From: an uncultured Enterobacterales bacterium
GTDB taxonomy: Bacteria > Myxococcota_A > UBA796 > CAJQPC01
Assembly: GCA_964610645.1 (NCBI GenBank)
Contig: CAZSZE010000016.1
Span: 617 to 64,616, forward strand
Length of the DNA stretch: 64,000 bases
Direction of reading: 5' to 3'
The notes beneath the pieces were generated by a model. The model ran no database searches and was not told the origin of the DNA. It was given only the letters and a program-made list of their open reading frames with translations. Made by a program: the position numbers and the translations under genes. Below are positions 5,915 to 38,855 of the stretch, piece after piece (positions within the stretch are counted from its first letter, which is position 1; each line of letters starts with the position of its first letter).

Positions 5915-5933
5915 TGTGGGGTGCCACCTGATG
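5915..5933. promoter_or_regulatory. candidate operator, palindrome TGTGGGGTG-C-CACCTGATG
   Basis: One of six intergenic copies of the AGGTG-N-CACCT-core palindrome. It lies 59 nt upstream of the SCP2 operon start. Confidence 0.55.
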
Positions 5934-5949
5934 CTCGGCCAAGGGCCTG

Positions 5950-7566: not shown

Positions 7567-7592
7567 TGTAATGTGACAGGTGACACTTTACA
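7567..7592. promoter_or_regulatory. candidate operator (TGACAGGTG-A-CACTTTACA at 7574-7592 plus extra half-site TGTAATGTG at 7567)
   Basis: Lies in the divergent ALDH / extended-SDR intergenic region. Same palindrome family as the other five sites. Confidence 0.5.
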
Positions 7593-7630
7593 TACACCGG
7601 GCTACACCGATCATCCACTCTGGAGTTGTC

Positions 7631-10925: not shown

Positions 10926-12149
10926 TCAGTACCCCCGCGGAAGCCCCAGTTCGTGCTCGCTGACGAAGTTCAGGATCATCTCGGCTGTGATCGGCGCGGT
11001 CCGCAGCAGGCGGGCGGACTCGTAGTAATGGATGATTCCGTACTCCTCTGAGAAGCCGTAGCCGCCGAGGGTCTGGATCGCCCGGTCCACGGCTTCAATC
11101 GCCATCTCCCCGGCCTTGTATTTCGCCATGTTGGCGTAGGTTCCGACCTTGCCGGGATGCTCCCCCTGGTCAAAGGCCCAGGCGGCCCGGTAGGTGAGCA
11201 GGCGCACGGCGTCTAGCTCAATGCGGACCTTCGCCAACGGATGCGAGATCGCCTGGTAGGCGCCGATGGGGCGGTCCTTGAAGACGGTGCGCTCCTTGGC
11301 ATAGCTCACGGCCTTGTCCAGGCAGTTCTGGGTCATGCCGCAGGCGGTGGCGGCCGCCAGGATCCGCTCCGGGTTCAGGGAGTTGAACAGCGCCATGCCC
11401 CCCATGTCGGCCTCGCCCACCAGCTCGGTGGCCGGCACCCGGACATCGTCCATGTAGACCGTGTACTGGGTCATGCCCTCGATGCCCCGGGTCGGGATGG
11501 GCTTGAGATCAATGCCGGGCAGCTTGGGATCGAGAATGAACAGCGCCAGGCCAAAGGCCTTGGGCAGGCCCTGTTCCTCGCATTGCTCCCGGGAGGTGGT
11601 GCGGCACACGAGCAGCAGGCGATCCGCCACATCGGCTCCGGTGATGAACACCTTCTGGCCGCTGATCAGGTAGTCATCGCCATCTTTCTTGGCGAGGGTC
11701 TGGATGCGGAAGGCGTTCGAGCCGGCGTTGGGCTCGGTGAGCGCAAAACCAAACTTCATCTCCCCGCTGGCCATCTTGGGCAGGTAGCGGCGCTTCATCT
11801 CCTCGGAGCCGTTGCGCAGGATGCACGACGCATCCATGGTGGTCAGCACGAAAAGGGCGTTTCCGAACCCCATAGTGGCCAGGGTCTCCAGGCCGATGGT
11901 GGTGGCCAGCAGTCCCATGTCGTTGCCGCCATATTCCTCGGGAATCACGCAGCCCATCAGCCCGGTGGAGCAGATGGCATCCCAGACCTCCTGGGGGAAG
12001 ATCTTGTCCTTCAACACCATCTTCACCAGCTCTTCCCGGCGGCCCTTGAACGGCTCCAGGCACTTCTTCATGGAGTCCTGGATCATGAGATGTTCTTCGG
12101 AGAATTCGAAATCGAGGGCCATGGGGCGCTCCGGTGGCAGAGGTGTCAT
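10926..12149 (-). CDS. acyl-CoA dehydrogenase
   Basis: 407 aa with typical ACAD architecture: FALTEPNAGSNAF, the middle domain ISGQKVFITGA, and C-terminal QTLGGYGFSEEYGIIHYY. Confidence 0.9.
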   Translation of the reverse strand: MTPLPPERPMALDFEFSEEHLMIQDSMKKCLEPFKGRREELVKMVLKDKIFPQEVWDAICSTGLMGCVIPEEYGGNDMGLLATTIGLETLATMGFGNALFVLTTMDASCILRNGSEEMKRRYLPKMASGEMKFGFALTEPNAGSNAFRIQTLAKKDGDDYLISGQKVFITGADVADRLLLVCRTTSREQCEEQGLPKAFGLALFILDPKLPGIDLKPIPTRGIEGMTQYTVYMDDVRVPATELVGEADMGGMALFNSLNPERILAAATACGMTQNCLDKAVSYAKERTVFKDRPIGAYQAISHPLAKVRIELDAVRLLTYRAAWAFDQGEHPGKVGTYANMAKYKAGEMAIEAVDRAIQTLGGYGFSEEYGIIHYYESARLLRTAPITAEMILNFVSEHELGLPRGY

Positions 12150-12166
12150 CCTGAGATTTCATCAAG

Positions 12167-12185
12167 TGTAAGGTGACACCTCATG
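12167..12185. promoter_or_regulatory. candidate operator TGTAAGGTG-A-CACCTCATG within promoter TTGCCG-17-TACACT
   Basis: Lies 18 nt upstream of the ACAD start. On the gene strand the palindrome sits in the spacer between -35-like and -10-like hexamers. Confidence 0.6.
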
Positions 12186-12250
12186 CTCGGCAAGGGGGGC
12201 TCGACCCTCAAGGTCTCCGAGGTTGCTGGAGGCCCTGGAAAAGCCCTCGG

Positions 12251-15466: not shown

Positions 15467-15541
15467 GGCGGGTTCGCCGGCCCGAGCGGACCGGAACGAT
15501 GCCGGAAGGGCTTGACGGGCGGGGCAGGTCCACATACAAAG

Positions 15542-15560
15542 TAATAGGTAACACCTTACA
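15542..15560. promoter_or_regulatory. candidate operator TAATAGGTA-A-CACCTTACA
   Basis: Lies 17 nt upstream of the ligase ATG. The half-site runs into the -10-like TACACT and is followed by GAGGGG. Confidence 0.55.
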
Positions 15561-15576
15561 CTTTGAGGGGCGTTGC

Positions 15577-17067
15577 ATGCTGGTTCCGGACCTCCTTCGA
15601 GAGGCTGCTGCCAAACAGCCGGAACGGGTGGCTGTCCACGTGGATGGTTGCGGGGAAATGACGTACGGGCAGTGGGAATCCCGCTCGAATCGCTTGGCCC
15701 GGGCCCTGGTGGCACTGGGGGTGTGCCCGGGGGACCGGGTGGCCCTGTCCTTCACCAACTTCGATGGACTGGCGTTTCTGGTCAGCTGGTTTGCGATTCA
15801 CAAGGCCGGCGGTGTGGGGGTGCCCACCAATCCGGCGGCCCCGCCCCGGGAGTTGGCGCACATTCTGGCGCACGCCCAGGTGAAGTTGGTGCTGGGTGCC
15901 GAGGGAACGCCCGCCCGCATGGCGGAGGTTCTTCCGGAAGACGCCAGCATTCTCTCGGGGACGCAGTTGGAGGGCTGTTGGACCGACGGGGACGGGGCCT
16001 CCTTCCAGGTCCCCACGGACCCCGATGCCCTCGCGGACATTCTGTACACCTCGGGCACCACGGGGCTGCCGAAGGGCGTGGCCTGCACCCACCGGAACGT
16101 GACCTTTCAGGGCGAGTCCAAGCTGCACAAGTTCTTCAAGGGCCTGCGCTACCTCCATGCGGTTCCGCTGTTCACCTTTGCTGGCTCCCATGCCATGACG
16201 CTGCTGTGCCTGCGCGGCACCATGACCCACGTGATCCAGCCCAGGTTTGAGCCCGGGCGCTTCCTGGATCTGCTGGCCGAGAAGAAGGTCGCCATCGCCT
16301 ATGCAGTCCCAGCCATGTTGCTGCGCTGCCTGGACCACCCGCGAATCAAGGAGGGGGGGTTCGACTTCCTGCGCCTGCTCATGTACGGCACGGCCCCCAT
16401 GCCGCCCCAGGCGATTGTGGGCCTGGCCGAGCACTTCAGCGGCACCTTCCTGGTCAACCTGTATGGGCTGACGGAGGGGGGCGCGGCTGTCTGCTCCCTG
16501 CCGCCCCAGGAGGCCCTGGCCCGCCCGGACTCCATTGGAAAGCCTCTGCCTCCGACCGAGGTGAAGATCGTGGATGAATCGGGTGCGGAGCTTGGACCGG
16601 GGGAACCCGGGGAGATCTGCATCAAGGCGGTTGTCGCGGGCCGCAGCTATTTCCGGGATGAAGGCGCGACCGACAGCACCTGGCAGGACGGCTGGCTGTT
16701 GACCGGGGACATCGGAATCCTGGATGCCGACGGGTACCTGTACCTGGTGGACCGCAAGAAGGACCTGATCATCGTGGGGGGGCACAACGTCTCGGCCCCG
16801 GAGGTGGAGGCGGCCTTGCTGGAACACCCGCAAGTGCGAGAGGCAGCTGTTGTCGGCTTGCACCACCCGGTCATGGGGGAGGTTCCCCAGGCCTTTGTGG
16901 TGGGGCGGGAGGAGACTCCGGCCCCGGATGCGCTTCAGAGTTGGCTCGAGGAGCGCCTCGTGTCCTACAAGGTCCCCCGCACCTACACCTTCCTGGACGA
17001 GCTGCCTCGAAACGCCCTGGGCAAGGTGCTCAAGCGCAAGCTTCGCGCCGAGCGAGCCCCCGCATGA
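15577..17067 (+). CDS. AMP-dependent acyl-CoA synthetase/ligase
   Basis: 496 aa with the AMP-binding motif YTSGTTGLPKGV, then LTGDIG...GYLYLVDRKKDLI and the C-terminal PRNALGKVLKRKL. Confidence 0.9.
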   Translation: MLVPDLLREAAAKQPERVAVHVDGCGEMTYGQWESRSNRLARALVALGVCPGDRVALSFTNFDGLAFLVSWFAIHKAGGVGVPTNPAAPPRELAHILAHAQVKLVLGAEGTPARMAEVLPEDASILSGTQLEGCWTDGDGASFQVPTDPDALADILYTSGTTGLPKGVACTHRNVTFQGESKLHKFFKGLRYLHAVPLFTFAGSHAMTLLCLRGTMTHVIQPRFEPGRFLDLLAEKKVAIAYAVPAMLLRCLDHPRIKEGGFDFLRLLMYGTAPMPPQAIVGLAEHFSGTFLVNLYGLTEGGAAVCSLPPQEALARPDSIGKPLPPTEVKIVDESGAELGPGEPGEICIKAVVAGRSYFRDEGATDSTWQDGWLLTGDIGILDADGYLYLVDRKKDLIIVGGHNVSAPEVEAALLEHPQVREAAVVGLHHPVMGEVPQAFVVGREETPAPDALQSWLEERLVSYKVPRTYTFLDELPRNALGKVLKRKLRAERAPA

Positions 17068-17879
17068 AGACCCACCACGTAGATCTTGGCGAGTACGCCC
17101 TGGCCATACACGAAACCGGGGCAGGACCCACCCTTGTGTTCGGCCACTCCCTGACCTTTGACCACCGCATGTTCCTGGCCCAGGTGGAGGAGCTGTCCAA
17201 GACCTACCGCGTGCTGCTGGTGGACCTCCATGGACAGGGGGAGAGCAGCGCCCCGAACGACTACTTCACCCTCGATGACATGGCGGACGACGTGGAACGG
17301 GCGCTCGCCTCCCTGGACGCCGGCCGGGTCTGCTACCTGGGCCACTCCATGGGGGGCATGGTGGGCATGCGGCTGGCCATTCGACACCCGGAGCGCGTGG
17401 GGGCGCTGGTGCTGATGAACACCAGCGCGGAGGCCGAGCCGCCGCCGGTGCAGGAGCTGTACCACAGCGTCAACGAGGGCTCTCGGGGCAAGCCGTCCAA
17501 CGAGGCGACCGTGGGTTTTCTGATGAATCTCATGTTCTCCCCCGAGTTTCGAGAAGCCTGCCCGGAGCGGGTAGCCTCCTATGAGCACCAGCTGTTCAAC
17601 CCCCCTGACCCCGAGGGGGTCTACTTTGCTGCCCACGCGGTCATCTGGCGGGAGGAAATCCTGCAGGCCTTGTCGAACCTGGAGGTGCCAGCCCTGGTGG
17701 TGGGTGCACAGGAGGACAGCAGCGTGCCACTGAAGCACCAGGAGCAGATCGCTGCCCACCTGCCCGGCGCACACCTCGCCGTCATTGATGCCTGCGGCCA
17801 CATGGCCCCGGTAGAGCAGCCGGACTTGCTGATCGGCCACATGCGGGAGTTCCTCGACACCCATTGGAGTGCGGTATGA
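17064..17879 (+). CDS. alpha/beta hydrolase
   Basis: 271 aa with an ATGA start/stop overlap. HG box VFGHSL and nucleophile elbow GHSMGG. Confidence 0.85.
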   Translation: MKTHHVDLGEYALAIHETGAGPTLVFGHSLTFDHRMFLAQVEELSKTYRVLLVDLHGQGESSAPNDYFTLDDMADDVERALASLDAGRVCYLGHSMGGMVGMRLAIRHPERVGALVLMNTSAEAEPPPVQELYHSVNEGSRGKPSNEATVGFLMNLMFSPEFREACPERVASYEHQLFNPPDPEGVYFAAHAVIWREEILQALSNLEVPALVVGAQEDSSVPLKHQEQIAAHLPGAHLAVIDACGHMAPVEQPDLLIGHMREFLDTHWSAV

Positions 17880-18670
17880 GCACGGTCCTGCTGCAGATCG
17901 AGGAAGGCATCGCCCGAATCACCTTGAACCGACCGGAACGCCGCAACGCCATGGATGCGGAGATGGTGCGGGACTTCCCGGCGGTGGTGGCACAGGTTGC
18001 AGCCGATGATTCGGTGCGGGTGGTGGTGGTGACCGGGGCTGGAAAGTCGTTTTGCTCAGGCGCGGACTTCACCACCTTGCAGTCGCTTTCAAGCGAGAGC
18101 CCGTTGGAAGGCCAGCTGGCGGCCCACAAGTCCATCGAGTCGCTCTACCAGGGGTTTCTGCCGCTTGCGGAGCTGGAGGTGCCGACCATCGCGGCCATCA
18201 ATGGGGCTTGTGTGGGCGGCGGGCTGGGTGTGGCGCTTTTATGCGACATGCGCATCGTGGCGGAGCGGGCGAAGATCGGAGCGAACTTCTCGCGCCTGGG
18301 CATTCACCCGGGCATGGGCATCACCGGCCGGTTGCCGGCGGTCATCGGCTACCCGGCGGCTGCGCGGCTCCTGTTTACTGGGGAGCTGATTCGGGGAAGT
18401 GAAGCGGTGGTCCTTGGCCTGGCCATGGAGGCCGTGGACTTTGATGCGGTGCTGCCGCGAGCCATGGAGCTGGCACAGCAGATTGCCGGGAGCGCTCCTT
18501 TGGCGGTGAAGTGGATCAAGCGCACTCTCAAGAACGTGGTATCGCGGGACATGGGAGATGTCCTGGAGATCGAGGCCATGGCCCAGGCGCTGTTGGCCCA
18601 GTCGGCGGATGCAGCCGAGGGAATCGCTGCGAGCATGCAGGGCCGTCCCCCGCGGTTCAAGGGCAGCTGA
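17876..18670 (+). CDS. enoyl-CoA hydratase/isomerase (crotonase)
   Basis: 264 aa with an ATGA overlap. Motifs LNRPERRNAM, VTGAGKSFCSGADF and AAINGACVGGG. Confidence 0.9.
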   Translation: MSTVLLQIEEGIARITLNRPERRNAMDAEMVRDFPAVVAQVAADDSVRVVVVTGAGKSFCSGADFTTLQSLSSESPLEGQLAAHKSIESLYQGFLPLAELEVPTIAAINGACVGGGLGVALLCDMRIVAERAKIGANFSRLGIHPGMGITGRLPAVIGYPAAARLLFTGELIRGSEAVVLGLAMEAVDFDAVLPRAMELAQQIAGSAPLAVKWIKRTLKNVVSRDMGDVLEIEAMAQALLAQSADAAEGIAASMQGRPPRFKGS

Positions 18671-19644
18671 TGGACTTTGCGTGGACCGAAGAGGAGCAGA
18701 TGGTGCTGGAGTCGGCGGGTACCTTTGCCGAGCGCGCATTGCAGGGGGAGGCGGAGCGGGCGCACGAGGCAGCCGGTGCTCTCTCCCAGGCGGTGCGGGA
18801 CACCTTTGATGCGTCCGGCTTGGGCCAGTTGGCAGCCACGGAGATGGACCCGGATCTGCCGGTGAGTTGGGAAGCGCGGTGCGGGATCCTTCGGATGTTG
18901 GCGCGGGCCGATGGTGCGGCTGCGTTTTCCCTCTGGATGGAGGGTTGGACGGCTTCTGCACTGGCTGCGCTTGGGGCGGAGCCTCGACCGGTGGCCTTTC
19001 AACTGGTGCGGGACAAGGCTGCAATTGCCTGGCCTCTCCCCTGTCTGCCCGTGGGTGCTGCGGAGCATGTCCTGGTCCTCGATGCTGCGGGTGCGTGGGG
19101 GGTGGCCCGCGTTGCTCCCCAATCGATCCAGGCTTTGGGACTCCATGCCGCCGGGCCGGCTCGCTGTGGCTTTGTGGAGTGGGTGGAGGACGGGCAGGCC
19201 CATCCGGAGTTGGCGGATCGCCTCGTGGCCCAGGCCCGGTTGTGGGTGGCGGCGATTCTTGTGGGGTTCAGCGCGGGCGCCACGGACTACACCCACCGGT
19301 ACATCCAGGAGCGGGTGACCTTTGGCCAGCCCCTGTCCCAGCACCAGGGGGCCGCGTTCATGGCGGCCGACATGGCGATTCGGACGGAGGGGGCGGACCT
19401 GTTGTTGCAACGGGCGGCCTGGGGCCTTGAAGCAGACCCGGGCCTGTCGGCCAGCGCCTACATGGAGGCGGTGGAGTCGGCGCTTTTTGTGACCAACACC
19501 GCGGTCCAGCTCCTGGGGGGCCACGGGTACATGAAGGACCACCCGGTGGAGAAGTGGATGCGGGATGCCCGGGCGATTTCATTGATCTGGGGTGGCGTGG
19601 ATGGGGCGCTGGAGAGCGAGGTCGTGGGCGGGAGGGCTGGATGA
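18670..19644 (+). CDS. acyl-CoA dehydrogenase-like small subunit lacking the catalytic Glu
   Basis: 324 aa with a TGATG overlap. ACAD C-terminal domain TDYTHRYIQERVTFGQPLSQHQG. The position of the (Y/V/F)EGT catalytic Glu reads LIWGGVDG. Confidence 0.75.
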   Translation: MDFAWTEEEQMVLESAGTFAERALQGEAERAHEAAGALSQAVRDTFDASGLGQLAATEMDPDLPVSWEARCGILRMLARADGAAAFSLWMEGWTASALAALGAEPRPVAFQLVRDKAAIAWPLPCLPVGAAEHVLVLDAAGAWGVARVAPQSIQALGLHAAGPARCGFVEWVEDGQAHPELADRLVAQARLWVAAILVGFSAGATDYTHRYIQERVTFGQPLSQHQGAAFMAADMAIRTEGADLLLQRAAWGLEADPGLSASAYMEAVESALFVTNTAVQLLGGHGYMKDHPVEKWMRDARAISLIWGGVDGALESEVVGGRAG

Positions 19645-20843
19645 ACTTTGAGATCGACTCCAGCTTCCAGAACCTGCGACAGATGATTGGCATGCTGGGC
19701 AAGGAGCGCCTGCGCCCCCTGGGGCTGGAGGCCGATGCCCAGGGCGGGGCGCTGCCACCGGACCATCCCTTCTTCCAGGAGGTCCTGGACATGGGCCTCA
19801 CCGGAGGATTTCTCGGCAAGACCCCCACCGATCGCCCCGATGACGATGGCCGACCCCGGCGCACCATCCGCCGAGCGGTCGTGATGGCCGAGGAGGCCGC
19901 CTACTGGGACCGGGGCATGGCGACCTCGCTGCCGGGGCCGGGCCTGGGCGGCGCACCCGTGATGCTCATGGGCACGCCGGAGCAGAAGGAGCGCTGGCTG
20001 GCACCGTTCAAGGACCGAAGTCAGCCTCGGTGGAGTGCTTTCGGCATGACCGAGCCAGGGGCGGGCTCCGATGTCGCAAGAATTCGGACCCGTATTCGTG
20101 AGGATGGCGACCATTTCGTCATCGATGGGGAAAAGGTCTTCATCTCCAACGGGGCTCGGGCCTCCTTTGTCGTCTGCTGGGGGACCGTGGACCCGGAAGC
20201 CGGGAGGGACGGCCACCGGGCGGTGGTGGTGGAGGCCGGCACACCGGGGTTCGAGGTAGCCAAGGTGGAAAAGAAGATGGGGCTGTGCGCCTCGGAGACC
20301 GCATCGCTGGTCTTTTCGGAGTGCAGGGTGCCAAAGGAGAACCTGCTGCGGCCCAATACGGACGGGGGAGGGGCCAGCTTCAAGGAGGCCATGAAGACCT
20401 TCGATATGACCCGGCCCATGGTGGCTGCCATGGCGGTGGGAATCGGCCAGGCGGCCCTGGACGAGGCCACGCGGTTTGCCCAGGAGAACTTCACCGGTCC
20501 CGCGGCCTGGCGATTGTCGCGGGTGGAAGATCGCCTGGCCCGCTGTCGCAGAAAACTGGAAATGGGGCGGCTGTATGCCTGGAAGGCAGCTTGGTTGGGG
20601 GACCACAAGCAGCCAAACAGCCTGGCGGCCTCCATGGCCAAGGCGGCCACAGCCCCAATCGCCCTGGAAGTGGCGAGCCTGGGCATGGAAATCCTGGGGG
20701 AGGCCGGGGGGGCCACTGGCCACTTGATCGAGAAGCTGTTCCGGGACGTCAAGGCCCTGGACATCGTAGAAGGCACTGGCCAGATCCAGCGCATTGTCAT
20801 CGCCCGGCGCATGTTCGGGTACAAGGGGAATCGAAATGGCTGA
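19641..20843 (+). CDS. acyl-CoA dehydrogenase, large catalytic subunit
   Basis: 400 aa with an ATGA overlap. Motifs GMTEPGAGSDVA and DGEKVFISNG. The catalytic Glu context DIVEGTGQIQR is present. Confidence 0.9.
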   Translation: MNFEIDSSFQNLRQMIGMLGKERLRPLGLEADAQGGALPPDHPFFQEVLDMGLTGGFLGKTPTDRPDDDGRPRRTIRRAVVMAEEAAYWDRGMATSLPGPGLGGAPVMLMGTPEQKERWLAPFKDRSQPRWSAFGMTEPGAGSDVARIRTRIREDGDHFVIDGEKVFISNGARASFVVCWGTVDPEAGRDGHRAVVVEAGTPGFEVAKVEKKMGLCASETASLVFSECRVPKENLLRPNTDGGGASFKEAMKTFDMTRPMVAAMAVGIGQAALDEATRFAQENFTGPAAWRLSRVEDRLARCRRKLEMGRLYAWKAAWLGDHKQPNSLAASMAKAATAPIALEVASLGMEILGEAGGATGHLIEKLFRDVKALDIVEGTGQIQRIVIARRMFGYKGNRNG

Positions 20844-21960
20844 AATGGGACGAGCCGCGGTCTTTCGCGGAGTGAAGGAACCCTTTGAACTGGCGGAATA
20901 CCCGGTCCCGGATCCGGGCCCGCGGGATCTCGTCGTCAAGATCGAGCGGACCAACATCTGCGGCAGCGATCTCCACATCTGGCGGGGTGACACCAACCTC
21001 GCCAGCATGGGGCTGACCTACGGAATCGTGCTCGGGCACGAAATGACCGGAAAGGTCCACGCCCTGGGTGGCAAGGTACGCACGGATTCCCTCGGGCAGA
21101 CCCTGAAGGAGGGCGACAACGTCGTCTATGCCTACTACTGCCCGTGCTCCCGGTGCCTGCCCTGTCTGAAGGGCGATCCCCACATGTGCATGGCGAGCCT
21201 GAGCAGCCCGGTGCGGCCTTGCGAAATGCCGCCGCATTTTCTGGGTGGTTTTGCCGACTACTACTACGTGAAGGGCCGCCAGGCGGTGTTCAAGGCGCCC
21301 CAGGGCGTGGAGCCAGAGCTGGTGGCTGGCGCCAACTGTGCCTTGTCCCAGGTGATCTACGGGCTTGAGCAGGCCAACCTCCAGTTTGGGGAGTCGGTCG
21401 TGGTGCAGGGCGCAGGGGGCCTGGGGCTCTTTGCCTGTGCGGTGGCCAAGGAGATGGGGGCCGGGAAGGTCATCGCCGTTGATGGCATTGATGCCCGCCT
21501 GGAATTGGCCCGGTCCTTTGGGGCCGACGAGGTGATCTCCATCACCGAGATGACCGATCCCCGTGCCCGGGTTGGCGAGGTCATGAACCTCACCGAGAAT
21601 GCGGGCGCCGACGTGGTGGTGGAGGTGGTTGGCATTCCCGAGGTGGTGCCCGAGGGCGTTCGCATGCTGGCTCGCGGCGGCCGGTACCTGGAAATGGGCA
21701 ACATCAACCCCAAGAAGACCTACAAGGCCGACCCCTCGCTCCTGGTGGGCCAGAACCGGTCCATGATCGGCGTGTCTCTCTACCCGCCCTACACCCTGAA
21801 GCAGGCCCTGGACTTCCTGGTGCGGGCCCGCCACAAGTACCCGTTTGAAAAGCTGCTTTCCCACTCCTTTTCCCTGGACGACATCGACAGTGCGTTTCAG
21901 GAGGCGGATGCCTTTTCCCACCAGCCCGGCGCGGTGGTGCGGGCCTCGGTGGTGCCATGA
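20836..21960 (+). CDS. zinc-dependent alcohol dehydrogenase (MDR family)
   Basis: 374 aa. Motifs GHEMTGKV and GSDLH, structural-Zn cysteines CPCSRCLPCLKGDPHMC, and Rossmann VVVQGAGGLG. Confidence 0.9.
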   Translation: MAEMGRAAVFRGVKEPFELAEYPVPDPGPRDLVVKIERTNICGSDLHIWRGDTNLASMGLTYGIVLGHEMTGKVHALGGKVRTDSLGQTLKEGDNVVYAYYCPCSRCLPCLKGDPHMCMASLSSPVRPCEMPPHFLGGFADYYYVKGRQAVFKAPQGVEPELVAGANCALSQVIYGLEQANLQFGESVVVQGAGGLGLFACAVAKEMGAGKVIAVDGIDARLELARSFGADEVISITEMTDPRARVGEVMNLTENAGADVVVEVVGIPEVVPEGVRMLARGGRYLEMGNINPKKTYKADPSLLVGQNRSMIGVSLYPPYTLKQALDFLVRARHKYPFEKLLSHSFSLDDIDSAFQEADAFSHQPGAVVRASVVP

Positions 21961-23441
21961 GCATCGACCACGGCTGGGCCATTGAAAAGTGCGGCCTTGG
22001 GGGGACACTGCCCATGTGGATTGACGGAGCCCTGGGACCGGCCGATGAAGGCGGTACCCTGGGGGCCACCAACCCCACCACGGGCGAGGAGATCGCCCGC
22101 TTTCCCAACGCCCGGGCATCGGATGTGGGCCGGGCCGTGGCTTCTGCCCGATTGGCGTTCGATACGGGCCCCTGGTGGAACAAGTGGGGCACAAACAAGC
22201 GGGCCCGGTGCCTGAAGAAGCTGGCGGGCCTCGTCAAGGAGCACGAAAAGGTCCTCGCCCGCACCGAGACGATGGACGTGGGCATGCCCTACGGCATGTC
22301 CCTCCGATTTTCTGCGACAGCCCTGCGCAAGAACCTCGAGTACTTTGCGGGCCTGGGCGATGCCCTGCACGGGGAGACCATTCCCCAGGCGTCTCCGACC
22401 CAGCTGGACTACACGCGGCGAGAGCCCCTGGGGGTCGTGGCGGCGATCATTCCCTGGAACACACCGCTCTTGGCCATTGGATCCAAGATCGGCCCGGCGT
22501 TGATGGCCGGGAACACGGTGATTCTCAAGCCATCGGAGAAGGCGAGCCTGTCAGCGCTCAAGGTGGCAGCGCTTGCGGCGGAAGCCGGCTTCCCGGATGG
22601 AGTGCTCCAGGTCATCACGGGCGATGGGGAGACCGGCTCGCTGCTGGTGGGCCACGCGGGCGTGGACAAGGTGAGTTTTACCGGCGGCGGTCGCACGGCG
22701 AGCGCTATTCAGCAGGCCACGGCGGAACAACTGACGCCGCTGACCTTTGAGCTGGGCGGAAAGAGCCCGAACGTGATCTTCGCCGACGCCGACCTGGACA
22801 AGGTGTCCATGCAATCCGCCATGGGGGTCTTTGGGCTCTCGGGGCAGGCCTGCGCAGCGGGCTCCCGGGTGCTTGTCGAGCGATCGATTCATGATCAAGT
22901 CGTGGAAGACCTCGCCCGGGTGGCGGGCAGCCTGGGCCTGGGGGACCCGCTGCAGCCCTACACGATGCTGGGACCCCTCAACAGCGAATCCCATGCCGAA
23001 CACGTGCGATCCATGATCGCGGAAGCCCAGGAGGATGGTGCCACCCTGCACCACGCCACGCCGGTGCCCGAGGAGTGCGGCCCGGCGTTTGTTGGCCCCC
23101 ACCTCTTCACGAACGTCACCCCCGAGATGCGCCTGTGGAAGAACGAGGTCTTCGGTCCCGTGGCCGCGGTCACGGCATTCGACACCGAAGAAGAAGCCCT
23201 CGCCCTGGCCAACGACACGGAGTTCGGCCTCGCCGCCGGCATCTGGACCCGGGATCTCGGCAAGGCCCACCGCATGGCCCACCGCATCCGCGCCGGCGTC
23301 GTCTGGGTCAACTGCTACGGCAGCCTGCCCAACAACGTGCCGTTCGGCGGCTTCAAGAAGAGCGGTGCCGGCCGGGAAGGTGGTATCCACGCCCTGGCGG
23401 AATTCACCCAGGTGAAGAACATCTTGATCGACGTGGGGTAG
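21957..23441 (+). CDS. aldehyde dehydrogenase
   Basis: 494 aa with an ATGA overlap. Motifs FTGGGRTASAI, ELGGKSPNVIF, GLSGQACAAGSR and EVFGPV. Confidence 0.9.
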   Translation: MSIDHGWAIEKCGLGGTLPMWIDGALGPADEGGTLGATNPTTGEEIARFPNARASDVGRAVASARLAFDTGPWWNKWGTNKRARCLKKLAGLVKEHEKVLARTETMDVGMPYGMSLRFSATALRKNLEYFAGLGDALHGETIPQASPTQLDYTRREPLGVVAAIIPWNTPLLAIGSKIGPALMAGNTVILKPSEKASLSALKVAALAAEAGFPDGVLQVITGDGETGSLLVGHAGVDKVSFTGGGRTASAIQQATAEQLTPLTFELGGKSPNVIFADADLDKVSMQSAMGVFGLSGQACAAGSRVLVERSIHDQVVEDLARVAGSLGLGDPLQPYTMLGPLNSESHAEHVRSMIAEAQEDGATLHHATPVPEECGPAFVGPHLFTNVTPEMRLWKNEVFGPVAAVTAFDTEEEALALANDTEFGLAAGIWTRDLGKAHRMAHRIRAGVVWVNCYGSLPNNVPFGGFKKSGAGREGGIHALAEFTQVKNILIDVG

Positions 23442-23721
23442 GGGGGCCGCTACCGTGCGTTCGTGCAGGGTGGTTCGATCTTGGTGTTGCCGCTGGTGCG
23501 CAGGCGGACCGAGTCCGGGGCTGGGGGGGAGCAGCCCGTGGTGAACTCGTCCTGGAAGTACTCGAAGACCCCCAGCTCGTCGCAGCTGTAGTCCCCGTCC
23601 AGCTCGTTGTTCCGGAACTCGTTTCCCCAGGAGGGGCACTCGGGGGTGGGCTTGGTGCAGTCGTCCCGGGCGTCGTGGTTTGGAACGGAGTTGGTGGGGC
23701 TCCGAATGCATCTGATGTTGC

Positions 23722-24312
23722 ATGCGCCTGTTGCGATGCGGCGCAGAAACCTGTTTGTCGATGCGGGAGTGGGGGACCGTGTCTGAGCAGTTCGACCTGT
23801 CCGCAGACACCATTCGGCGGTTGTTCGACCTGTTGGATGGCGAGCTTCGTTCGATGGGGGTTGTGGGCGAGGTCCACCTGGTCGGCGGAGCGGTCATGTG
23901 CCTGGTGTTCGATGCCAGGCCCTCCACGCGGGATGTGAATGCGTGGTTTCATCCTGCCACCGAGCTGCGTGAGGCGGCCGGGCGTGTGGCGGCGGTGGCA
24001 GGGGTACCGGAAGGTTGGCTCAACGATGGAGCGAAGGGCTTTCTCGGTTCGCGGGCGGAATTCGAGCCCTATCTCGACCTGCCAAACCTGCGCCTGTTCA
24101 CGGCTGTACCCGCCTATCTCCTGGCCATGAAGTGCTTGGCAATGCGAATCGGAAAGGGATTTCGCGACGAGGAGGATGTGCGATTCCTGCTGCGGGTACT
24201 CAACATTGAGCGCTACGAGGATGCAGTGGAATTGGTGCTGTCCTACTTCGAGGAGGATCGGATTCCGCCCAAAACATGGCTGGCCCTGGAGGAGATACTG
24301 AGGGGGGATTAG
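23722..24312 (+). CDS. hypothetical protein, possible degenerate nucleotidyltransferase-fold (DUF6036/AbiEii-like)
   Basis: 196 aa. HLVGGAVMCLVFDARPSTRDVN resembles a GG...R.T.D.D minimal NTase motif with the second Asp replaced. The start could be the ATG at 23761. Confidence 0.4.
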   Translation: MRLLRCGAETCLSMREWGTVSEQFDLSADTIRRLFDLLDGELRSMGVVGEVHLVGGAVMCLVFDARPSTRDVNAWFHPATELREAAGRVAAVAGVPEGWLNDGAKGFLGSRAEFEPYLDLPNLRLFTAVPAYLLAMKCLAMRIGKGFRDEEDVRFLLRVLNIERYEDAVELVLSYFEEDRIPPKTWLALEEILRGD

Positions 24313-24322
24313 ACTTGTCGCA

Positions 24323-25513
24323 TCAATTGTCTCGCGGATAGCCGAATTTCCGTCGGGCGAGGATGACGCGCTGGATTTCCCCGGTGCCCTCGAAGATGTC
24401 GAAGACCTTGATGTCCCGGAAGCACTTTTCCACCAGCATGTCGTGGCGCACCCCGACCAGGCCCACCACGTCCATGGCCGCGGTCACCGCGCCGAGTGCT
24501 GCGGGGGGAGAGTAGACCTTGGACATGGAGGCTTCAATCGTGTTGTTCATGCGGTGGTCCATTTTCCAGGCGGCCCGCCAGCACAGGAGGCGGGCTGCAT
24601 CCAGGTGGCGACGGGATTGTGCCAGGCGATCCAGGACCCGGTGCTCCATGGGAGAGGTGGGGTGGGGGCCAAAGGCCTCCCGGGCGACCTCGGCAGCGCG
24701 GTTCCAGGCGCAGCGCCCGATTCCCACCGCCATTGCGGCCACCATGGGACGGGTGATGTCGAAGGTGGCCATGGCCGCCTTGAAGCCCGACTTGCCTGCG
24801 CCGTTGCCGAGCATGTTCTCCGCTGGCACCCGGCAATCCTCCAGGAACAGGGTGGCCGTCTCAGAGGCCGTGAGGCCCATCTTCTTTTCGATTCGCCCCA
24901 GGGTGAATCCTGGGGTGTCCTTTTCCACGATGAAGGCTCGCTGGCCCGCCCGTCCGGCATCGGGATCCACCGTCGCGAAAATCACCACCCAGGAGGCGCG
25001 GCCCCCGTTGGTGATGAACATTTTGTTCCCATCGAGAATGTAGTGGTCCCCGTCCTTGCGGGCGGTGGTGCGGATGCGGGCGATGTCGCTGCCCGCAGCG
25101 GCTTCGGTGGTGGCGTATGCCCCCCAGGCCGGCTTGAGCGGATCCTTGAAAGGGGCCTCCAGGAAGCGCTCCTTTTGTGTATCGGTGCCCAGGATGCGGA
25201 TCGGGGGTCCCCCCAGGCCGGCACCGGGCAAGGACATACAAGCACCCTGGTCCCAGAAGGCCATCTCCTCGGCAGCCAGGATTGCGGACCGGTTGATGCG
25301 GGAGGGTCCCTCTTTGGCGGAGTGTTGTCCGATTCCCACGGCGCCGAAGGTGAGCCCGGTGCGATTGAACTCCACGAACATGGGGTCATCCACAGGGATC
25401 GGTCCCCCGCGGCGTTCTGCGGCGAGCCCTGCCGGGCGGAGCATGGTCCGGCCCACGTAGCGCATCATGCGCAGGACGTTGTGAAAGCCTGCATCGAGTG
25501 TGGTGTCGATCAT
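24323..25513 (-). CDS. acyl-CoA dehydrogenase, large catalytic subunit (paralog of 19641-20843)
   Basis: 396 aa that aligns along its length with the other large subunit. The catalytic Glu context DIFEGTGEIQR is present. Confidence 0.9.
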   Translation of the reverse strand: MIDTTLDAGFHNVLRMMRYVGRTMLRPAGLAAERRGGPIPVDDPMFVEFNRTGLTFGAVGIGQHSAKEGPSRINRSAILAAEEMAFWDQGACMSLPGAGLGGPPIRILGTDTQKERFLEAPFKDPLKPAWGAYATTEAAAGSDIARIRTTARKDGDHYILDGNKMFITNGGRASWVVIFATVDPDAGRAGQRAFIVEKDTPGFTLGRIEKKMGLTASETATLFLEDCRVPAENMLGNGAGKSGFKAAMATFDITRPMVAAMAVGIGRCAWNRAAEVAREAFGPHPTSPMEHRVLDRLAQSRRHLDAARLLCWRAAWKMDHRMNNTIEASMSKVYSPPAALGAVTAAMDVVGLVGVRHDMLVEKCFRDIKVFDIFEGTGEIQRVILARRKFGYPRDN

Positions 25514-26496
25514 CCGTCCACCTCCAGCGGGTCGGAGAGGGTGAGGATGCCCAGGGCGGCATCGTGTTCACTGCGCAGGACACCGCCATAGAGGGCGGCC
25601 ACACAGCGCACATCCCGCATGCGCTTTTCCACCCGGTGGTCATAAAGGTAGCCGTGTCCGCCCAGGGCCTGGACGCTGCGTTCGCAGACCCGGTCCGCCA
25701 CTTCCACAGCCAGGGCGTGGGCATTGGCTGTCTCGATTGGGCACCCCGCGCTGGCCTCCACCAGGAGCCGGGCCGCCGTGAGGTCGGTGGCTGCATCGGC
25801 CAGTTGGAAGGCCATGCCCTGGTGGTGGGCGATGGGGCGACCAAAGACCACGCGCTCCTGGGTGTAGAGGGCTGCGGCGTTGTGGGCATCCTGTGCGGCC
25901 CCAATCAGCACGGTGGCTGCAAGTCGCCGGCACTCGGCCAGGGCATCCCTCGACGCATCCTCATCACCGATGCGCGTGCAGAGGGTGTTCTCCAGGACCA
26001 CCTCCACGCCCCCGCAGGCTTGCAGGCCGCATGGGCGGTCAGCCAGTGCCCGGCAGTCCGGCGTGTCCACGAGGTACAGCCCCTCCTGGGCGACCAGCAC
26101 CAGCCAGTCCAGGGAGTGGCGGGGAATCCAGGGCACAACTCCAGTCACAGCCCCGTCGACGATTTCCAGTCCCTCAGTGGTGCAGAAGGCACCGGTGCCG
26201 GCGGGAAGGTTGGGCACCATCGCCCCCCCAGGCCCCACGGGATCCAGACCGAAGGGGGCTGCGGGGTCTGCCTCGGCCAGGGCCGACCAGACCGCGAGCC
26301 GGTGGCAAGGCTCCAGGCCGGTTTCCGCGCGGTTGAGGTCCGCAAGGCCCAGATCCGCGTAGGCGGCCGCGATCCCGGCAGGAAAGGCCTGGGCCTTTTC
26401 ATGGTCCCGCTCGGCATCTCGCAGGTGTTCCGCGGCGAAACGTGCTGCGGTGTCCTTTAGAAGCTCTTCTTCTTCTTGAATGGCAAAGTCGATCAT
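25510..26496 (-). CDS. acyl-CoA dehydrogenase-like small subunit lacking the catalytic Glu (paralog of 18670-19644)
   Basis: 328 aa with an ATGA overlap onto the large subunit. The catalytic position reads ALYGGVLR. Confidence 0.75.
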   Translation of the reverse strand: MIDFAIQEEEELLKDTAARFAAEHLRDAERDHEKAQAFPAGIAAAYADLGLADLNRAETGLEPCHRLAVWSALAEADPAAPFGLDPVGPGGAMVPNLPAGTGAFCTTEGLEIVDGAVTGVVPWIPRHSLDWLVLVAQEGLYLVDTPDCRALADRPCGLQACGGVEVVLENTLCTRIGDEDASRDALAECRRLAATVLIGAAQDAHNAAALYTQERVVFGRPIAHHQGMAFQLADAATDLTAARLLVEASAGCPIETANAHALAVEVADRVCERSVQALGGHGYLYDHRVEKRMRDVRCVAALYGGVLRSEHDAALGILTLSDPLEVDG

Positions 26497-26507
26497 GATT
26501 TCTTGTG

Positions 26508-27365
26508 TCAGTGGGAGTGATCTTGGAGAAAGGACAGCAGCGCCTCGTTGAACACCGATTCACACTCCACAGAGATGTTGTGTCCCGCTCCCTTGAAGCT
26601 GACCCACTCGGAGCCGGTGAGTCCATCATGCAGAAGCTGTCCGGCCACGTAGGGAATGATCATGTCCCGCGTGCCATGGAGCACCAGGGAGGGGCAGTGG
26701 ATTTCGGCGAGACGTTCCCGAGTCGAGTAGCCAACCGTGGCGTGCCAGGCATAGGCCCGGGCCGGGTCGGCGGTTTGGGTCATGCGCTTGATCAACTTGA
26801 GCAGCCGCTCACCGTTCGGCAGCTCCTCGGAGATCGTGCCGTTCAGCTCCGCCCGGACCGTGGGATCCGCCAGGAAGTCCACCGCCCACTCCACCTTGGA
26901 GCGAAAGGACGTATCTTCCATGGCTTTGTCGAACCCGTGGTGGGCCAGGTGGCTCAGGGCAGCCCCATAGGCGGAACCCCGTTGGCCACTGTGGGAGGTG
27001 GTGGAGGCCAGGACCAGGGAGGTCACCCGTTCCGGATGGGCCAGGGTGTACTGCTGGGCACACATGCCCCCGAGAGAGTGACCGACCAGGTGGAATTTCT
27101 CCAGTCCCGCGGCTTTCCGAACGGCTTCCAGGTCGGCTGCCAACTGCTCGATGGTGAAGTTGCTGGTGGCGGGATCCGAGTCCCCGAATCCCCTGAGATC
27201 GCAGGCCAGAACTCGGAAACCAGCGGAAAGGAGGACATTTTGCTGGGAGGCCCAGAGCTCGCGGCCAAAGCCCAGGCCGTGGAGGAGCACCACCGCCGGG
27301 CCATCTCCGGAGCATTCCGCTGCCAACTGGAGTCCGTCCGCGCTGGTTGCAGTCAATCGGGACAA
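26508..27365 (-). CDS. alpha/beta hydrolase (paralog of 17064-17879)
   Basis: 285 aa. HG box LLHGLGF and nucleophile elbow GHSLGG. Confidence 0.85.
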   Translation of the reverse strand: MSRLTATSADGLQLAAECSGDGPAVVLLHGLGFGRELWASQQNVLLSAGFRVLACDLRGFGDSDPATSNFTIEQLAADLEAVRKAAGLEKFHLVGHSLGGMCAQQYTLAHPERVTSLVLASTTSHSGQRGSAYGAALSHLAHHGFDKAMEDTSFRSKVEWAVDFLADPTVRAELNGTISEELPNGERLLKLIKRMTQTADPARAYAWHATVGYSTRERLAEIHCPSLVLHGTRDMIIPYVAGQLLHDGLTGSEWVSFKGAGHNISVECESVFNEALLSFLQDHSH

Positions 27366-27413
27366 GCCATTGTGCCTTGACAGAAGGGTTTCAGGGTGCG
27401 AAGAAGTATAAAC

Positions 27414-27432
27414 TGTAAGGTGTCACCTTGCA
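27414..27432. promoter_or_regulatory. candidate operator TGTAAGGTG-T-CACCTTGCA (best palindrome of the six)
   Basis: Lies in the divergent region between the hydrolase-ACAD operon and the MerR-crotonase operon. On the minus strand it is followed by TATACT. Confidence 0.6.
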
Positions 27433-27574
27433 CTTTCTAAGAATGGCGATCTCATGAAGTCTGGCCCTTTCTACCTGTTTGAGACCCTGGCGGACGCGTC
27501 TACAGCGGCAGGTGCCACCCCATAGTTTGCTTGACCTGGCCGCCGGGTCGTTCTACTTGAGTCGAGGATTGTCC

Positions 27575-28327
27575 ATGCGCAAGGAAACGGCGGACCCGAT
27601 GGCAGAGGGGATCAAGATCGGCGAGTTGGTGAAGCGCACCGGGGTGACCCGGGCGACGGTGCACCATTACGTGCGGGAGGGCCTCCTTCCGGAGCCGAAG
27701 AAGACCTCGCGCAACATGGCGTTGTACGACCCGAGCTGCGTGGACCGCGTGCTGCTCATCAAGGGGCTTCAGGCCCAGACGCGGCGCTCCCTGGCCGAGG
27801 TCAAGGGCCTGCTGGAAGATGCCACCGGCAACGAGGGCATTGGCCGGCTCCAGGACCTGCTGGAGAACGAGGCCATGCGGGCCCAGGTCTCCCCGTTGAA
27901 CCCGGAAAAGAGCCGCTCCCCCCTGACGTTGAAGCAGCTGTGCGATCGCAGTGGGTTTGGCCGGACGGACATCGAGGAGTTCTGTGAGCACGACCTGATC
28001 GTGCCGACCGGCACCGGTCGGAATCGCAGGTTTGGTCCCCTGGACGTGGCGGTGGTCGATGCCCTGGCGGGACTTCGGGAAGCGGGCTTTGACGAGACCC
28101 ATGGTTTCAGGCCGGCCCATGCCGCCATCTACCTGCATGCCATGCGGGACCTTCTGCACACGGAGATCTCCAGCTTTCTGGCAACCGCGTCGAGCTACGA
28201 CGATCCCGATGAGCTTCTGCGCCTCGCGGAGATGGGCATCGAGCGGGTCACGCCGCTGATGCTGGCCTTGCGCCGGCGGGTCATGCACGAGCTGATTGCT
28301 GCAACGCCCCTTGCCAACGGCAACTGA
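27575..28327 (+). CDS. MerR-family transcriptional regulator (LiuR-like context)
   Basis: 250 aa from the ATG at 27575, with GAGG 8-9 nt upstream. MerR HTH: IKIGELVKRTGVTRATVHHYVREGLL. Confidence 0.85.
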   Translation: MRKETADPMAEGIKIGELVKRTGVTRATVHHYVREGLLPEPKKTSRNMALYDPSCVDRVLLIKGLQAQTRRSLAEVKGLLEDATGNEGIGRLQDLLENEAMRAQVSPLNPEKSRSPLTLKQLCDRSGFGRTDIEEFCEHDLIVPTGTGRNRRFGPLDVAVVDALAGLREAGFDETHGFRPAHAAIYLHAMRDLLHTEISSFLATASSYDDPDELLRLAEMGIERVTPLMLALRRRVMHELIAATPLANGN

Positions 28328-29124
28328 TGGCACAGGAGATCCCTCCGTTTGAGAGCTTGATCTACGAGCTGGAGGGGCATGTCTGCACCCTGACCCTGAA
28401 CCGGCCGGAGAAGCGAAACGCCCTGTCGGGACAGCTTGTGAATGAGTTGATCGTGGCCCTGGAAACCGCCGGGGAAGACCCGGATGTCCGGGTGGTGGTG
28501 CTGACCGGTGCTGGCAGTGCCTTTTGCGCCGGGGCGGATCTCTCCCAGATGAGCGGAGCTGCTGCCAGTGGGGACTCCCCCATCGCGTGGCGGGGTGGCT
28601 TTCAGGAGTTGAATCTCGCGTTCACCGAAATCGGCAAGCCGGTCCTCTGCAAGGTCCGTCGCTACGCCCTGGCGGGTGCCCTGGCCCTGGTGTGCAACAG
28701 CACCTTTGTGCTGGCCGAGGACAACGCCACCTTCGGTGCCCCGGAGATCGACCGGGGCATCTTTCCCATGATGGTGATGGCCAGCCTGTTCCGCACGGTG
28801 CCCAAGCGAAAGGGCCTGGAGCTGGTGCTGTCCGGCGAGCGCATCTCCGCTGCCGAGGCCGCCCAGATGGGCCTGATCACCCGGGCGGTTCCCTCCGAAG
28901 ACCTGGACGACGCTGTGGCGACCCTGGCCGCCACCCTCGCTGCCAAGCCGCCGGCCGCCGTGCGCCTGGGCCTGGAGGCCTACCACGCCCAATCCGAAAA
29001 AGACTTTGCCGAAGCCCTGCCCTACCTCCAGGAAATGCTGATGAAGTGCCTCAGCACCGAGGACGCCCAGGAAGGCGTGATGGCCTTCCTGCAAAAGCGC
29101 GAGCCGGTCTGGAAGGGGCGCTGA
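28327..29124 (+). CDS. enoyl-CoA hydratase/isomerase (crotonase)
   Basis: 265 aa with a TGATG overlap onto the MerR stop. Motifs LNRPEKRNAL and LTGAGSAFCAGADL. Confidence 0.9.
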   Translation: MAQEIPPFESLIYELEGHVCTLTLNRPEKRNALSGQLVNELIVALETAGEDPDVRVVVLTGAGSAFCAGADLSQMSGAAASGDSPIAWRGGFQELNLAFTEIGKPVLCKVRRYALAGALALVCNSTFVLAEDNATFGAPEIDRGIFPMMVMASLFRTVPKRKGLELVLSGERISAAEAAQMGLITRAVPSEDLDDAVATLAATLAAKPPAAVRLGLEAYHAQSEKDFAEALPYLQEMLMKCLSTEDAQEGVMAFLQKREPVWKGR

Positions 29125-38702: not shown

Positions 38703-38718
38703 GGGCGCCTCACAAAAG

Positions 38719-38737
38719 TATAAGGTGGCACCTGATA
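38719..38737. promoter_or_regulatory. candidate operator TATAAGGTG-G-CACCTGATA
   Basis: Lies 17 nt upstream of the thiolase-like GTG. On the gene strand the half-site merges with TATACT. Confidence 0.55.
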
Positions 38738-38855
38738 CATACTGCTTGTACCGTGAGAGGGCAACCCGCAGGGGTTTAGTGGAACATCTCTCCATCCGAC
38801 CCTTGGGGTGCTGCTGGCAGGCGCATGCCCGGGGGGGTGCGACACCAATGGGACA

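Follow-up and report, generated by a model that had tools for sequence, protein, structure and literature searches.

Two gene pairs that probably encode two-subunit acyl-CoA dehydrogenases (ACADs) were found in a 64-kb stretch of DNA (about 65% G+C; hereafter the window) from a metagenomic contig of an uncultured bacterium. Each pair consists of a short gene, beta, and a longer gene, alpha, and we consider it likely that their products are the two subunits of an obligately heteromeric ACAD, most likely an alpha2beta2 tetramer. This judgement covers the whole explanation developed below, including an enlarged substrate pocket and a common regulon. Enzymes of this class have already been described in Mycobacterium tuberculosis; by their sequences the pairs are, provisionally, best filed as new, divergent members of the FadE23/24-type branch of that class. 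The nearest relatives of the window are marine and groundwater metagenome-assembled genomes labelled Deltaproteobacteria or Myxococcota, and proteins identical to those of the window occur on metagenome contigs only.

The module genes were read by translating their coordinates. In module 1, on the plus strand, beta1 (324 amino acids (aa); 18670..19644) precedes alpha1 (400 aa; 19641..20843). In module 2, on the minus strand, beta2 (328 aa; 25510..26496) precedes alpha2 (396 aa; 24323..25513). These four subunits were assigned by translation and alignment. The partners overlap by 4 nucleotides (nt) in both modules, at an ATGA at 19641 and a minus-strand ATGA at 25510-25513. The initial annotation had described eight open reading frames (per module a hydrolase, a crotonase and the two ACADs), their ATGA and TGATG junctions and the Glu-less motifs of both small ACADs, and all of this was confirmed by translation and direct reading of the sequence. 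Family assignments of the module genes were confirmed by Pfam. On four other metagenome contigs, gene callers run independently gave the same genes of 271, 264, 324 and 400 aa. In RefSeq both partners of a pair are named only 'acyl-CoA dehydrogenase family protein'.

The catalytic base is present in alpha and missing from beta. The motifs DIVEGTGQIQR and DIFEGTGEIQR of the large subunits and LIWGGVDG and ALYGGVLR of the small ones were all present. In HMMER alignments against solved ACADs, DIVEGT and DIFEGT fell on Tyr375-Glu376-Gly377-Thr378 in medium-chain acyl-CoA dehydrogenase (MCAD) with the Glu retained, giving E377 as the catalytic residue of alpha1 and E375 as that of alpha2. LIWGGV of beta1 and ALYGGV of beta2 fell on the same motif, and the position of Glu376 is occupied by W307-G308-G309 and Y303-G304-G305, respectively. 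A wider alignment combined 35 beta-alpha pairs with MCAD residues 79-390 (from the 1ege alignment) and canonical ACADs; it is described here in MCAD numbering. Position 376 was Glu in all 35 alphas and in no beta, with Asp in six full-length planctomycete betas. A base elsewhere in the small subunit, which the initial annotation had named as contrary evidence, was sought at the position used in isovaleryl-CoA and long-chain acyl-CoA dehydrogenases (IVD and LCAD; MCAD 255). No Glu was found there, the betas reading I, A, L, K, V or T, and the description of the subunit as base-less stands.

The two subunits have also lost opposite halves of the site for flavin adenine dinucleotide (FAD). In a normal ACAD dimer, one chain holds the isoalloxazine and ribityl parts of FAD together with the catalytic Glu, and its partner holds the ADP part. 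The cofactor is located at the dimer interface (PMC11153573). Across the 35 pairs, alpha kept T136, E137, P138, G141, S142 and D143 as well as F/W166, T/S168, N169, G170, E376, G377 and T378 in 32-35 sequences, all at positions where beta is gapped or variable. Conversely, R281, F284, G285, Q292, Q349 and G353 were invariant in 33-35 of the 35 betas. Alpha has N, H, A or E at 281, E or D at 349 and E, P or D at 353, whilst every canonical ACAD in the alignment keeps R281, Q349 and G353. We take these positions to be cis and trans FAD contacts from the MCAD structure, and their invariance in the canonical sequences agrees with this sorting.

The window proteins follow the same pattern. Beta1 keeps the trans contacts to the ADP part of FAD (R215, F218, G219, Q226, Q280, G283 and G284) and lacks the TEPxxGSD loop, the WITNG strand and Glu376; beta2 keeps R215, F218, G219, Q226, Q276, G279 and G280. 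Alpha1 keeps T137-E138-P-G-A-G-S143-D144 and F167-I-S169-N170-G, with its trans contacts lost (N283, E350 and E354), and alpha2 keeps T136, E137, S142, D143, F166, T168 and N169, with A280, D348 and L352 at the lost contacts. The catalytic apparatus of MCAD is retained in alpha (E376, G377, T378, R256 and the flavin loop), but neither alpha nor beta combines the cis contacts, trans contacts and base found in each chain of a canonical homotetrameric ACAD. These sequences indicate that one complete FAD site can form only in an alpha-beta dimer, the mirror-image site being destroyed from both sides. Since alpha keeps the flavin side and beta the partner side, one FAD and one active site are expected per alpha-beta dimer; an alpha-alpha or beta-beta dimer should not hold FAD properly. 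The division of residues in the 35 pairs agrees with the published division of labour in the solved steroid alpha2beta2 enzymes, ChsE4-ChsE5 among them: isoalloxazine, Glu and substrate site belong to alpha, and beta contacts the ADP-ribose (PMC11153573, PMC8399759).

The small ACADs are 60-75 aa shorter than normal ACADs. Pfam matched their ACAD C-terminal domain and, weakly, the N-terminal domain, leaving the middle domain unmatched, and profile-profile alignment of beta with alpha located a deletion of approximately 45-50 residues around the TEPGAGSD loop. An AlphaFold2 (AF2) model of beta1 (pLDDT, the predicted local distance difference test score, 93.9) has the three-domain ACAD fold: helices at the N-terminus, a beta-domain cut short (residues 109-176) and a helical domain at the C-terminus. 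Across homologous loci the betas range from 295 to 400 aa, indicating that the 324-328-aa betas of the window are a pruned form. In a profile search of 1.84 billion representatives, beta matched at least 1331 representative clusters (E <= 1e-30). Of the 150 top matches listed, 129 could be scored, and every one of these lacked both the catalytic EG[TS] motif and TEPxxGSD.

Next to beta, the alpha gene is widely conserved. We fetched 58 beta-like loci and found alpha less than 100 nt downstream of beta in 37-38, 17 of which have genes overlapping by 4 or 1 nt. Pairs occur in Myxococcota, Planctomycetota, Nitrospirota, Binatia and Bacillota (Alicyclobacillus, Neobacillus, Bacillus and Symbiobacterium); the overlapping beta stop and alpha start are conserved across phyla, and the correlation between the distance matrices of the two subunits is r = 0.83. 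Loci L001-L005, down to 45-50% beta identity, keep the whole module-1 operon (ligase, hydrolase, crotonase, beta, alpha, Zn-dehydrogenase and aldehyde dehydrogenase), and L001 also has module 2. In those loci of Myxococcota and Nitrospirota that were examined, the Zn-dehydrogenase gene directly follows alpha. In L018, L027 and L032, the neighbours of the pair are genes for a MerR regulator, a ligase, a luciferase-like monooxygenase, a hydrolase and an aldehyde dehydrogenase, joined in L032 by a thiolase and a DUF35-type protein. In the Bacillota loci they are a ligase, a canonical crotonase and a short-chain dehydrogenase/reductase (SDR). As the partner genes change in distant loci, the recurrent core is the ACAD pair, the ligase and a crotonase-fold protein. 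The initial annotation had asked whether hydrolase and crotonase accompany the pairs elsewhere: the crotonase-fold protein does so recurrently, whereas the hydrolase is clade-specific. A luciferase-like monooxygenase gene lies between beta and alpha in L009 (9046-10161) and L011, and another directly precedes the pair in L018 (6288-7493), these being Myxococcota/Binatia loci.

We also placed the pairs among known systems. No NCBIfam equivalog cut-off was reached by the proteins scanned, and matches at subfamily level were confined to the thiolase at 4362-5474 and a methyltransferase at 34436-35269; none of the curated models pointed to a substrate. A weak match of the beta search led to Gordonia protein P0096 (455 aa; 4001-5368 in L085), whose gene is followed by that of a 410-aa ACAD. 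The reciprocal pattern recurs in the Gordonia pair: alpha, with TEPSFGSD and DIFEGTQQIQ, no longer has the trans residues, and beta, with REAFG, RQ and QLLGGHG, is devoid of the flavin loop. In a neighbour-joining tree in which it stands in for the M. tuberculosis proteins, this pair is sister to the alpha and beta clades, not inside them, with the canonical ACADs outside. Orthologues of P0096 (455-470 aa) occur across Mycobacteriales, and an IMPase-family gene lies upstream of the Gordonia pair. No protein named FadE24 was reached in the homologue search with P0096; by length, distribution in Mycobacteriales and synteny, the Gordonia pair nevertheless appears orthologous to M. tuberculosis FadE24-FadE23. 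Wipperman et al. (2013) reportedly placed fadE23-24 and fadE17-18 in the alpha2beta2 family. The M. tuberculosis gene order, impC-pflA-fadE24-fadE23-fadB4 (PMC2834668), is matched by the Gordonia locus, and FadE23-FadE24 (Rv3140-Rv3139) is treated in one study, which cites Wipperman et al. (2013), as a complex under SigE control (PMC11980559).

Of the complexes described so far, FadE23-FadE24 is the nearest. Using the Gordonia pair as a proxy, the window pairs resemble FadE23-FadE24 in the order of a FadE24-like beta and a FadE23-like alpha, the MCAD-type DIFEGT Glu and the reciprocal FAD pattern. Identity is approximately 37-38% for alpha and 28-39% for beta, the latter in the C-terminal domain. 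The actinobacterial betas have 455-470 aa, an N-terminal extension, a middle domain detectable by Pfam and Glu376, whereas the window betas have 324-328 aa, a pruned beta-barrel and no acidic residue at position 376. The gene context also differs, with a MerR/LiuR-like regulator, ligase, hydrolase and alcohol and aldehyde dehydrogenases in the window, and SigE control and fadB4 in M. tuberculosis. Among the tandem ACADs met in these searches, four proteins of approximately 770 aa (P0217, P0222, P0233 and P0235) were considered as beta-alpha fusions and rejected, being generic two-domain ACADs with the flavin loop in both halves. In P0217, P0233 and P0239, also tandem ACADs of approximately 770 aa, the first half (both halves in P0233) has IGAG[TS] instead of YEGT. 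These proteins, which are not related to the window family, show another route to an ACAD whose halves are unequal.

The module-1 operon is headed by an AMP-binding acyl-CoA synthetase gene (15578..17067, plus strand; Pfam). Its mechanical open reading frame begins at 15361, and the likely start read from the sequence is the ATG at 15578. Two genes assigned by translation and Pfam follow on the same strand: hyd1, an alpha/beta-fold serine hydrolase with a GHSMGG elbow (271 aa; 17064..17879), and crot1, a crotonase-fold protein (264 aa; 17876..18670). These are joined by ATGA junctions at 17064 and 17876, and a TGATG at 18670 leads into beta1. Downstream of alpha1 lie a Zn-dependent medium-chain dehydrogenase (20845..21960, plus strand; alternative start 20836; Pfam) and an NAD(P)-dependent aldehyde dehydrogenase (21957..23441, plus strand) of generic BADH/StyD-like type, not the CoA-acylating MmsA type. 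In module 2, an 11-nt gap separates beta2 from hyd2 (285 aa, TTG start; 26508..27365, minus strand), an alpha/beta-fold serine hydrolase with GHSLGG. Divergent from hyd2 is a MerR-family regulator gene (250 aa; about 27575..28327, plus strand), whose product carries an N-terminal MerR helix-turn-helix (HTH) followed by a long C-terminal extension. A TGATG at 28327 couples this gene translationally to crot2, a second crotonase-fold protein (265 aa; 28327..29124, plus strand).

Pairwise identity between the modules was 50% for alpha1/alpha2, 33% for beta1/beta2, 26% for hyd1/hyd2 and 29% for crot1/crot2, and the nearest relatives of the two ACAD pairs differ. These values indicate that the ACAD pairs are old paralogues with no recent duplication and that the hydrolase and crotonase identities are ordinary superfamily background. 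The description of the modules as paralogous therefore holds for the ACAD pairs but not for the hydrolases and crotonases, which are related at superfamily level only. PDB sequence searches with hyd1 and hyd2 returned only generic esterases, enol-lactonases and meta-cleavage product (MCP) hydrolases; by sequence, hyd1 is esterase/enol-lactonase-like.

The crotonase label likewise fits the fold family, confirmed by Pfam, but not an ordinary hydratase, since one or both catalytic Glu are gone. Alignment of crot1 with 3-hydroxypropionyl-CoA dehydratase and EchA8 placed Gly and Phe at the two catalytic positions, within its own motifs GGGLG... and ...ANFSRLGIHPG. In crot2, Ala replaces the first catalytic Glu and the second is retained (FGAPEIDRG). 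Neither protein thus has both equivalents of E144 and E164 of rat enoyl-CoA hydratase (ECH), the pair typical of canonical hydratases. The replacement in crot1 is conserved in eight orthologues (L001-L005, L027, L039 and L046) as GGG[LFM]G...ANFxRLGIH, indicating that crot1 belongs to a distinct, probably non-hydratase subfamily. It could be a non-hydratase enzyme or an acyl-CoA-binding protein, and crot2 could be an isomerase-type enzyme.

The two modules also share a palindrome. The divergent region between hyd2 and the MerR gene contains a 33-bp palindrome at 27407..27439 (TATAAACTGTAAGGTG-T-CACCTTGCACTTTCTA). Its core, AGGTGNCACCT, occurs nine times in the window with at most one mismatch, compared to 2.67 +/- 1.79 expected, and none of 100 shuffles reached nine. 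Six sites share an extended 25-bp form (AAGTGTAAGGTGnCACCTTACACTT) at promoter-like positions. One is the operator-like palindrome CAAAGTAATAGGTAACACCTTACACTTTG at 15535..15567, about 10-45 nt upstream of the ligase ATG at 15578, and another the hyd2-MerR site itself. The others are at 12165..12187, 20-34 nt upstream of the start of a third ACAD; at 38717..38739, before the conserved part of an SCPx-type thiolase; at 7572..7594, between an aldehyde dehydrogenase and an SDR-type reductase gene; and at 5913..5935, before a string of SCP2, thiolase, MFE-2-like and carboxyltransferase genes. Elsewhere, exact-core copies were found only in the orthologous loci L001-L005.

We take the palindrome to be the probable operator of the MerR-family regulator encoded at 27575-28327, whose MerR_1 domain was matched by Pfam at 9.9e-21 and whose homologues adjoin beta-alpha pairs in L018, L027 and L032. 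As it precedes both modules and other lipid-catabolic genes, the modules probably belong to one regulon, and a shared regulon is a stronger functional link between them than paralogy. LiuR, a repressor in Proteobacteria that acts on branched-chain acyl-CoA catabolism, is an established example of a MerR-family protein in such a role (PMC3223726). The window resembles that system in having a MerR-family gene within a set of ACAD, crotonase, carboxyltransferase and thiolase genes and a palindrome before several catabolic operons, with binding predicted. The window regulator differs in its 250-aa length and long C-terminal extension, and the likeness is one of HTH and palindrome placement. The C-terminal half of the regulator resembles a second, degenerate MerR-type HTH, and residues 24-176 gave a weak NCBIfam match to FtsR.

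Taking these results together, we propose that both ACAD pairs are controlled by the LiuR-like MerR-family regulator through the 25-bp palindrome and would act in a route from an ester, alcohol or aldehyde to an acid, then to an acyl-CoA, its alpha,beta-desaturation and a modified beta-oxidation releasing propionyl-CoA. Genes suited to such a route comprise ligases, serine hydrolases, the Zn-dehydrogenase, two aldehyde dehydrogenases, three ACADs and two thiolase types, together with SCP2, the MFE-2-like fusion and the carboxyltransferase; GH5, lipase-like and GMC-oxidoreductase genes lie nearby. The dead second site and a Pro/Gly-rich, unwound start of helix E in alpha may enlarge the acyl pocket to accept a bulky or branched acyl-CoA. 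In the alpha1 model, SLPGPG forms a coil and helix E has only 10 residues. Proline-induced unwinding of helix E opens the pockets of LCAD and ChsE4 for bulky substrates (PMC11153573). Alpha1 recalls both enzymes through the short helix E of its model, and its P98-G-P100 is not equated with Pro132 of LCAD.

That the substrate is a bulky or methyl-branched lipid acyl-CoA is suggested by gene context and the AF2 model, and we regard this as evenly balanced. A valine/propionate-type pathway (ACAD, hydratase, thioester hydrolase, and 3-hydroxyacid and methylmalonate-semialdehyde dehydrogenases) was considered and rejected; the aldehyde dehydrogenase is BADH/StyD-like, not MmsA. More tentatively, the MerR gene set of approximately 40 kb could be an undescribed, marine Myxococcota-like route for a bulky, methyl-branched or polycyclic lipid with FadE23/24-type ACADs as specialised desaturases, a reading we think rather doubtful. 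Candidate substrates would then be a sterol, hopanoid or isoprenoid side chain, or a glycolipid aglycone, and the Glu-less crotonase-fold protein would be part of the route. If it holds, this more tentative reading would also offer a first clue to the function of the orphan M. tuberculosis FadE23-FadE24 complex.

Several other explanations of the pairs were weighed. The small ACADs are short and base-less and have no middle domain recognised by Pfam, as expected if they were decaying pseudogenes or remnants of a tandem duplication, a possibility raised in the initial annotation. Comparison with the 77%-identical orthologue in L001 however gave ratios of nonsynonymous to synonymous substitution (dN/dS) of 0.14 for beta and 0.06 for alpha, and such purifying selection indicates that the small ACAD is not a pseudogene. 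Twenty alignment columns are invariant across 48 beta homologues, the AF2 model is confident, the family counts more than 1000 representative clusters and the start/stop overlap with alpha is kept across phyla. The two subunits share 24% identity with each other, less than alpha (36%) or beta (30%) shares with canonical ACADs, indicating no recent duplication. Decay is thus effectively refuted, and we give it almost no weight. A self-sufficient alpha, working as a homotetrameric MCAD-like enzyme with beta as an accessory (chaperone, regulator or acyl-CoA binder) outside the FAD site, gains from the best sequence and fold matches of alpha, which are MCADs (34-37% identity, 236 bits, template modelling (TM) score 0.85-0.90). 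Alpha shares the catalytic Glu, flavin loop and R256 with homotetrameric MCAD/SCAD-type (medium- and short-chain) enzymes such as 1ukw and human MCAD. Unlike these enzymes, alpha lacks R281, Q349 and G353, exactly where beta is invariant, and beta lacks the flavin loop and base. This reciprocal pattern would be difficult to account for if beta did not complete the FAD site of alpha, making an accessory beta quite unlikely.

The initial annotation had compared the pairs to the steroid side-chain dehydrogenases ChsE1-ChsE2 and ChsE4-ChsE5. Its architectural claim of a short, base-less ACAD forming a heteromer with a full one is supported by the sequences, but the ChsE/IpdE lineage is not. Like ChsE4-ChsE5, ChsE1-ChsE2 and IpdE1-IpdE2 (4x28 and 6wy8), the window pairs have adjacent genes, one Glu per alpha-beta, short betas, isoalloxazine on alpha and ADP-ribose on beta, with bulky substrates and proline-induced helix-E unwinding proposed. 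Orthology to these enzymes would also suit the SCP2, MFE-2-like (Hsd4A/Hsd4B-like), Ltp-type thiolase and GMC oxidoreductase genes in the window and the sub-threshold NCBIfam matches of the crotonases to EchA19 and of the ligase to steroid-24-oyl-CoA ligase; the ligase matched long-chain and FadD3 ligase models in the same way. The sequence lineage is however distant. The IpdE2 model scored 36-38 bits against a cut-off of 450, beta scored 22-35 bits with the steroid chains 4x28_D and 6wy8_A compared to 84 bits with canonical ACADs, and the 60 best sequence matches and 50 best fold matches of alpha contained no steroid chain. The base of the window pairs is at the Glu376 position, unlike that of ChsE2 and ChsE4, a Glu of helix G (E241/E247). 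A KstR-type ring-degradation context is absent, and no ring-degradation genes (KstD, Ksh, Hsa, ChsH-Ltp2 context) were found in the 64 kb, only generic lipid genes. A steroid identity is thus very unlikely. Scores of 20-62 bits with PimC and PimD (TIGR03204 and TIGR03203), against cut-offs of 624 and 653, ruled out the pimeloyl-CoA dehydrogenase PimCD.

Several findings weigh against our own interpretation of the pairs as heteromeric dehydrogenases. At 18 of the 58 beta-like loci there is no alpha directly downstream; some of these are contig ends or were missed by the motif filter (L003), and others have alpha elsewhere. No electron-transfer flavoprotein (ETF) genes were found in the window. 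The Gordonia beta keeps Glu at position 376 (IGEGIVVL, at the extreme C-terminus), indicating that not all of the wider family has lost the base; as this protein already lacks the flavin loop, loss of the FAD site seems to have come before loss of the base. Lastly, one study credits FadE23-FadE24 with 'a different catalytic activity' (PMC11980559). This remark, the missing ETF genes and the adjoining crotonase-fold proteins without hydratase Glu would fit a heteromer that acts as an oxidase, an isomerase-type ACAD-fold enzyme or an enzyme of acyl-carrier-protein or other thioesters, not as a beta-oxidation dehydrogenase. Such an activity is unlikely given the complete MCAD apparatus of alpha and a context rich in acyl-CoA ligases, thiolases and an MFE-2-like hydratase/dehydrogenase.

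Discussion of heteromeric ACADs usually treats them as peculiar to steroid-degrading Actinobacteria and Proteobacteria. The pairs described here form a sequence-distinct branch, apparently sister to the poorly understood FadE23-FadE24 pair of M. tuberculosis, that is widespread, as the cluster count and range of phyla given above indicate. Pairs can be annotated as one enzyme by TEPxxGSD, [FW]I[TS]NG and EGT in alpha and ERxxFG, HQ and QxLGGxG in beta, and their operon and regulon contexts suggest candidate substrates for a family without assigned function.

The remaining candidate regulon genes lie on the minus strand. The third ACAD (10926..12149; Pfam and alignment) is full length and has Glu at MCAD 255 and Pro at 376, the rarer IVD/LCAD-type helix-G base. 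Four genes with approximate starts follow the palindrome at 5913..5935: a stand-alone SCP2 protein (5497..5856), a thiolase (4362..5474), an 829-aa MFE-2-like SDR+SCP2+MaoC fusion with a double-hot-dog MaoC, similar to peroxisomal multifunctional enzyme 2 (1921..4410), and a propionyl-CoA-carboxylase-type carboxyltransferase (365..2161). This string (365-5935) is unusually 'peroxisome-like' for a bacterium. The SCPx/'lipid-transfer protein'-type thiolase spans 37515..38739 with its palindrome included. Just past module 2, at 29911-33884 on the minus strand, are genes for a PGAP1 lipase-like protein, a GH5 glycosidase and a 643-aa GMC oxidoreductase. A GH5 gene also adjoins the beta-alpha pair in L018 (13000-14634), and its presence near both hints at a glycolipid substrate. 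Genes for several large secreted-type proteins with MopE-like Cu-binding, FG-GAP repeat and subtilase domains, which fit a Myxococcota-like host and are unrelated to the ACAD pairs, occur at 8767-10890, 12251-13855, 43393-46740 and 62645-63928.

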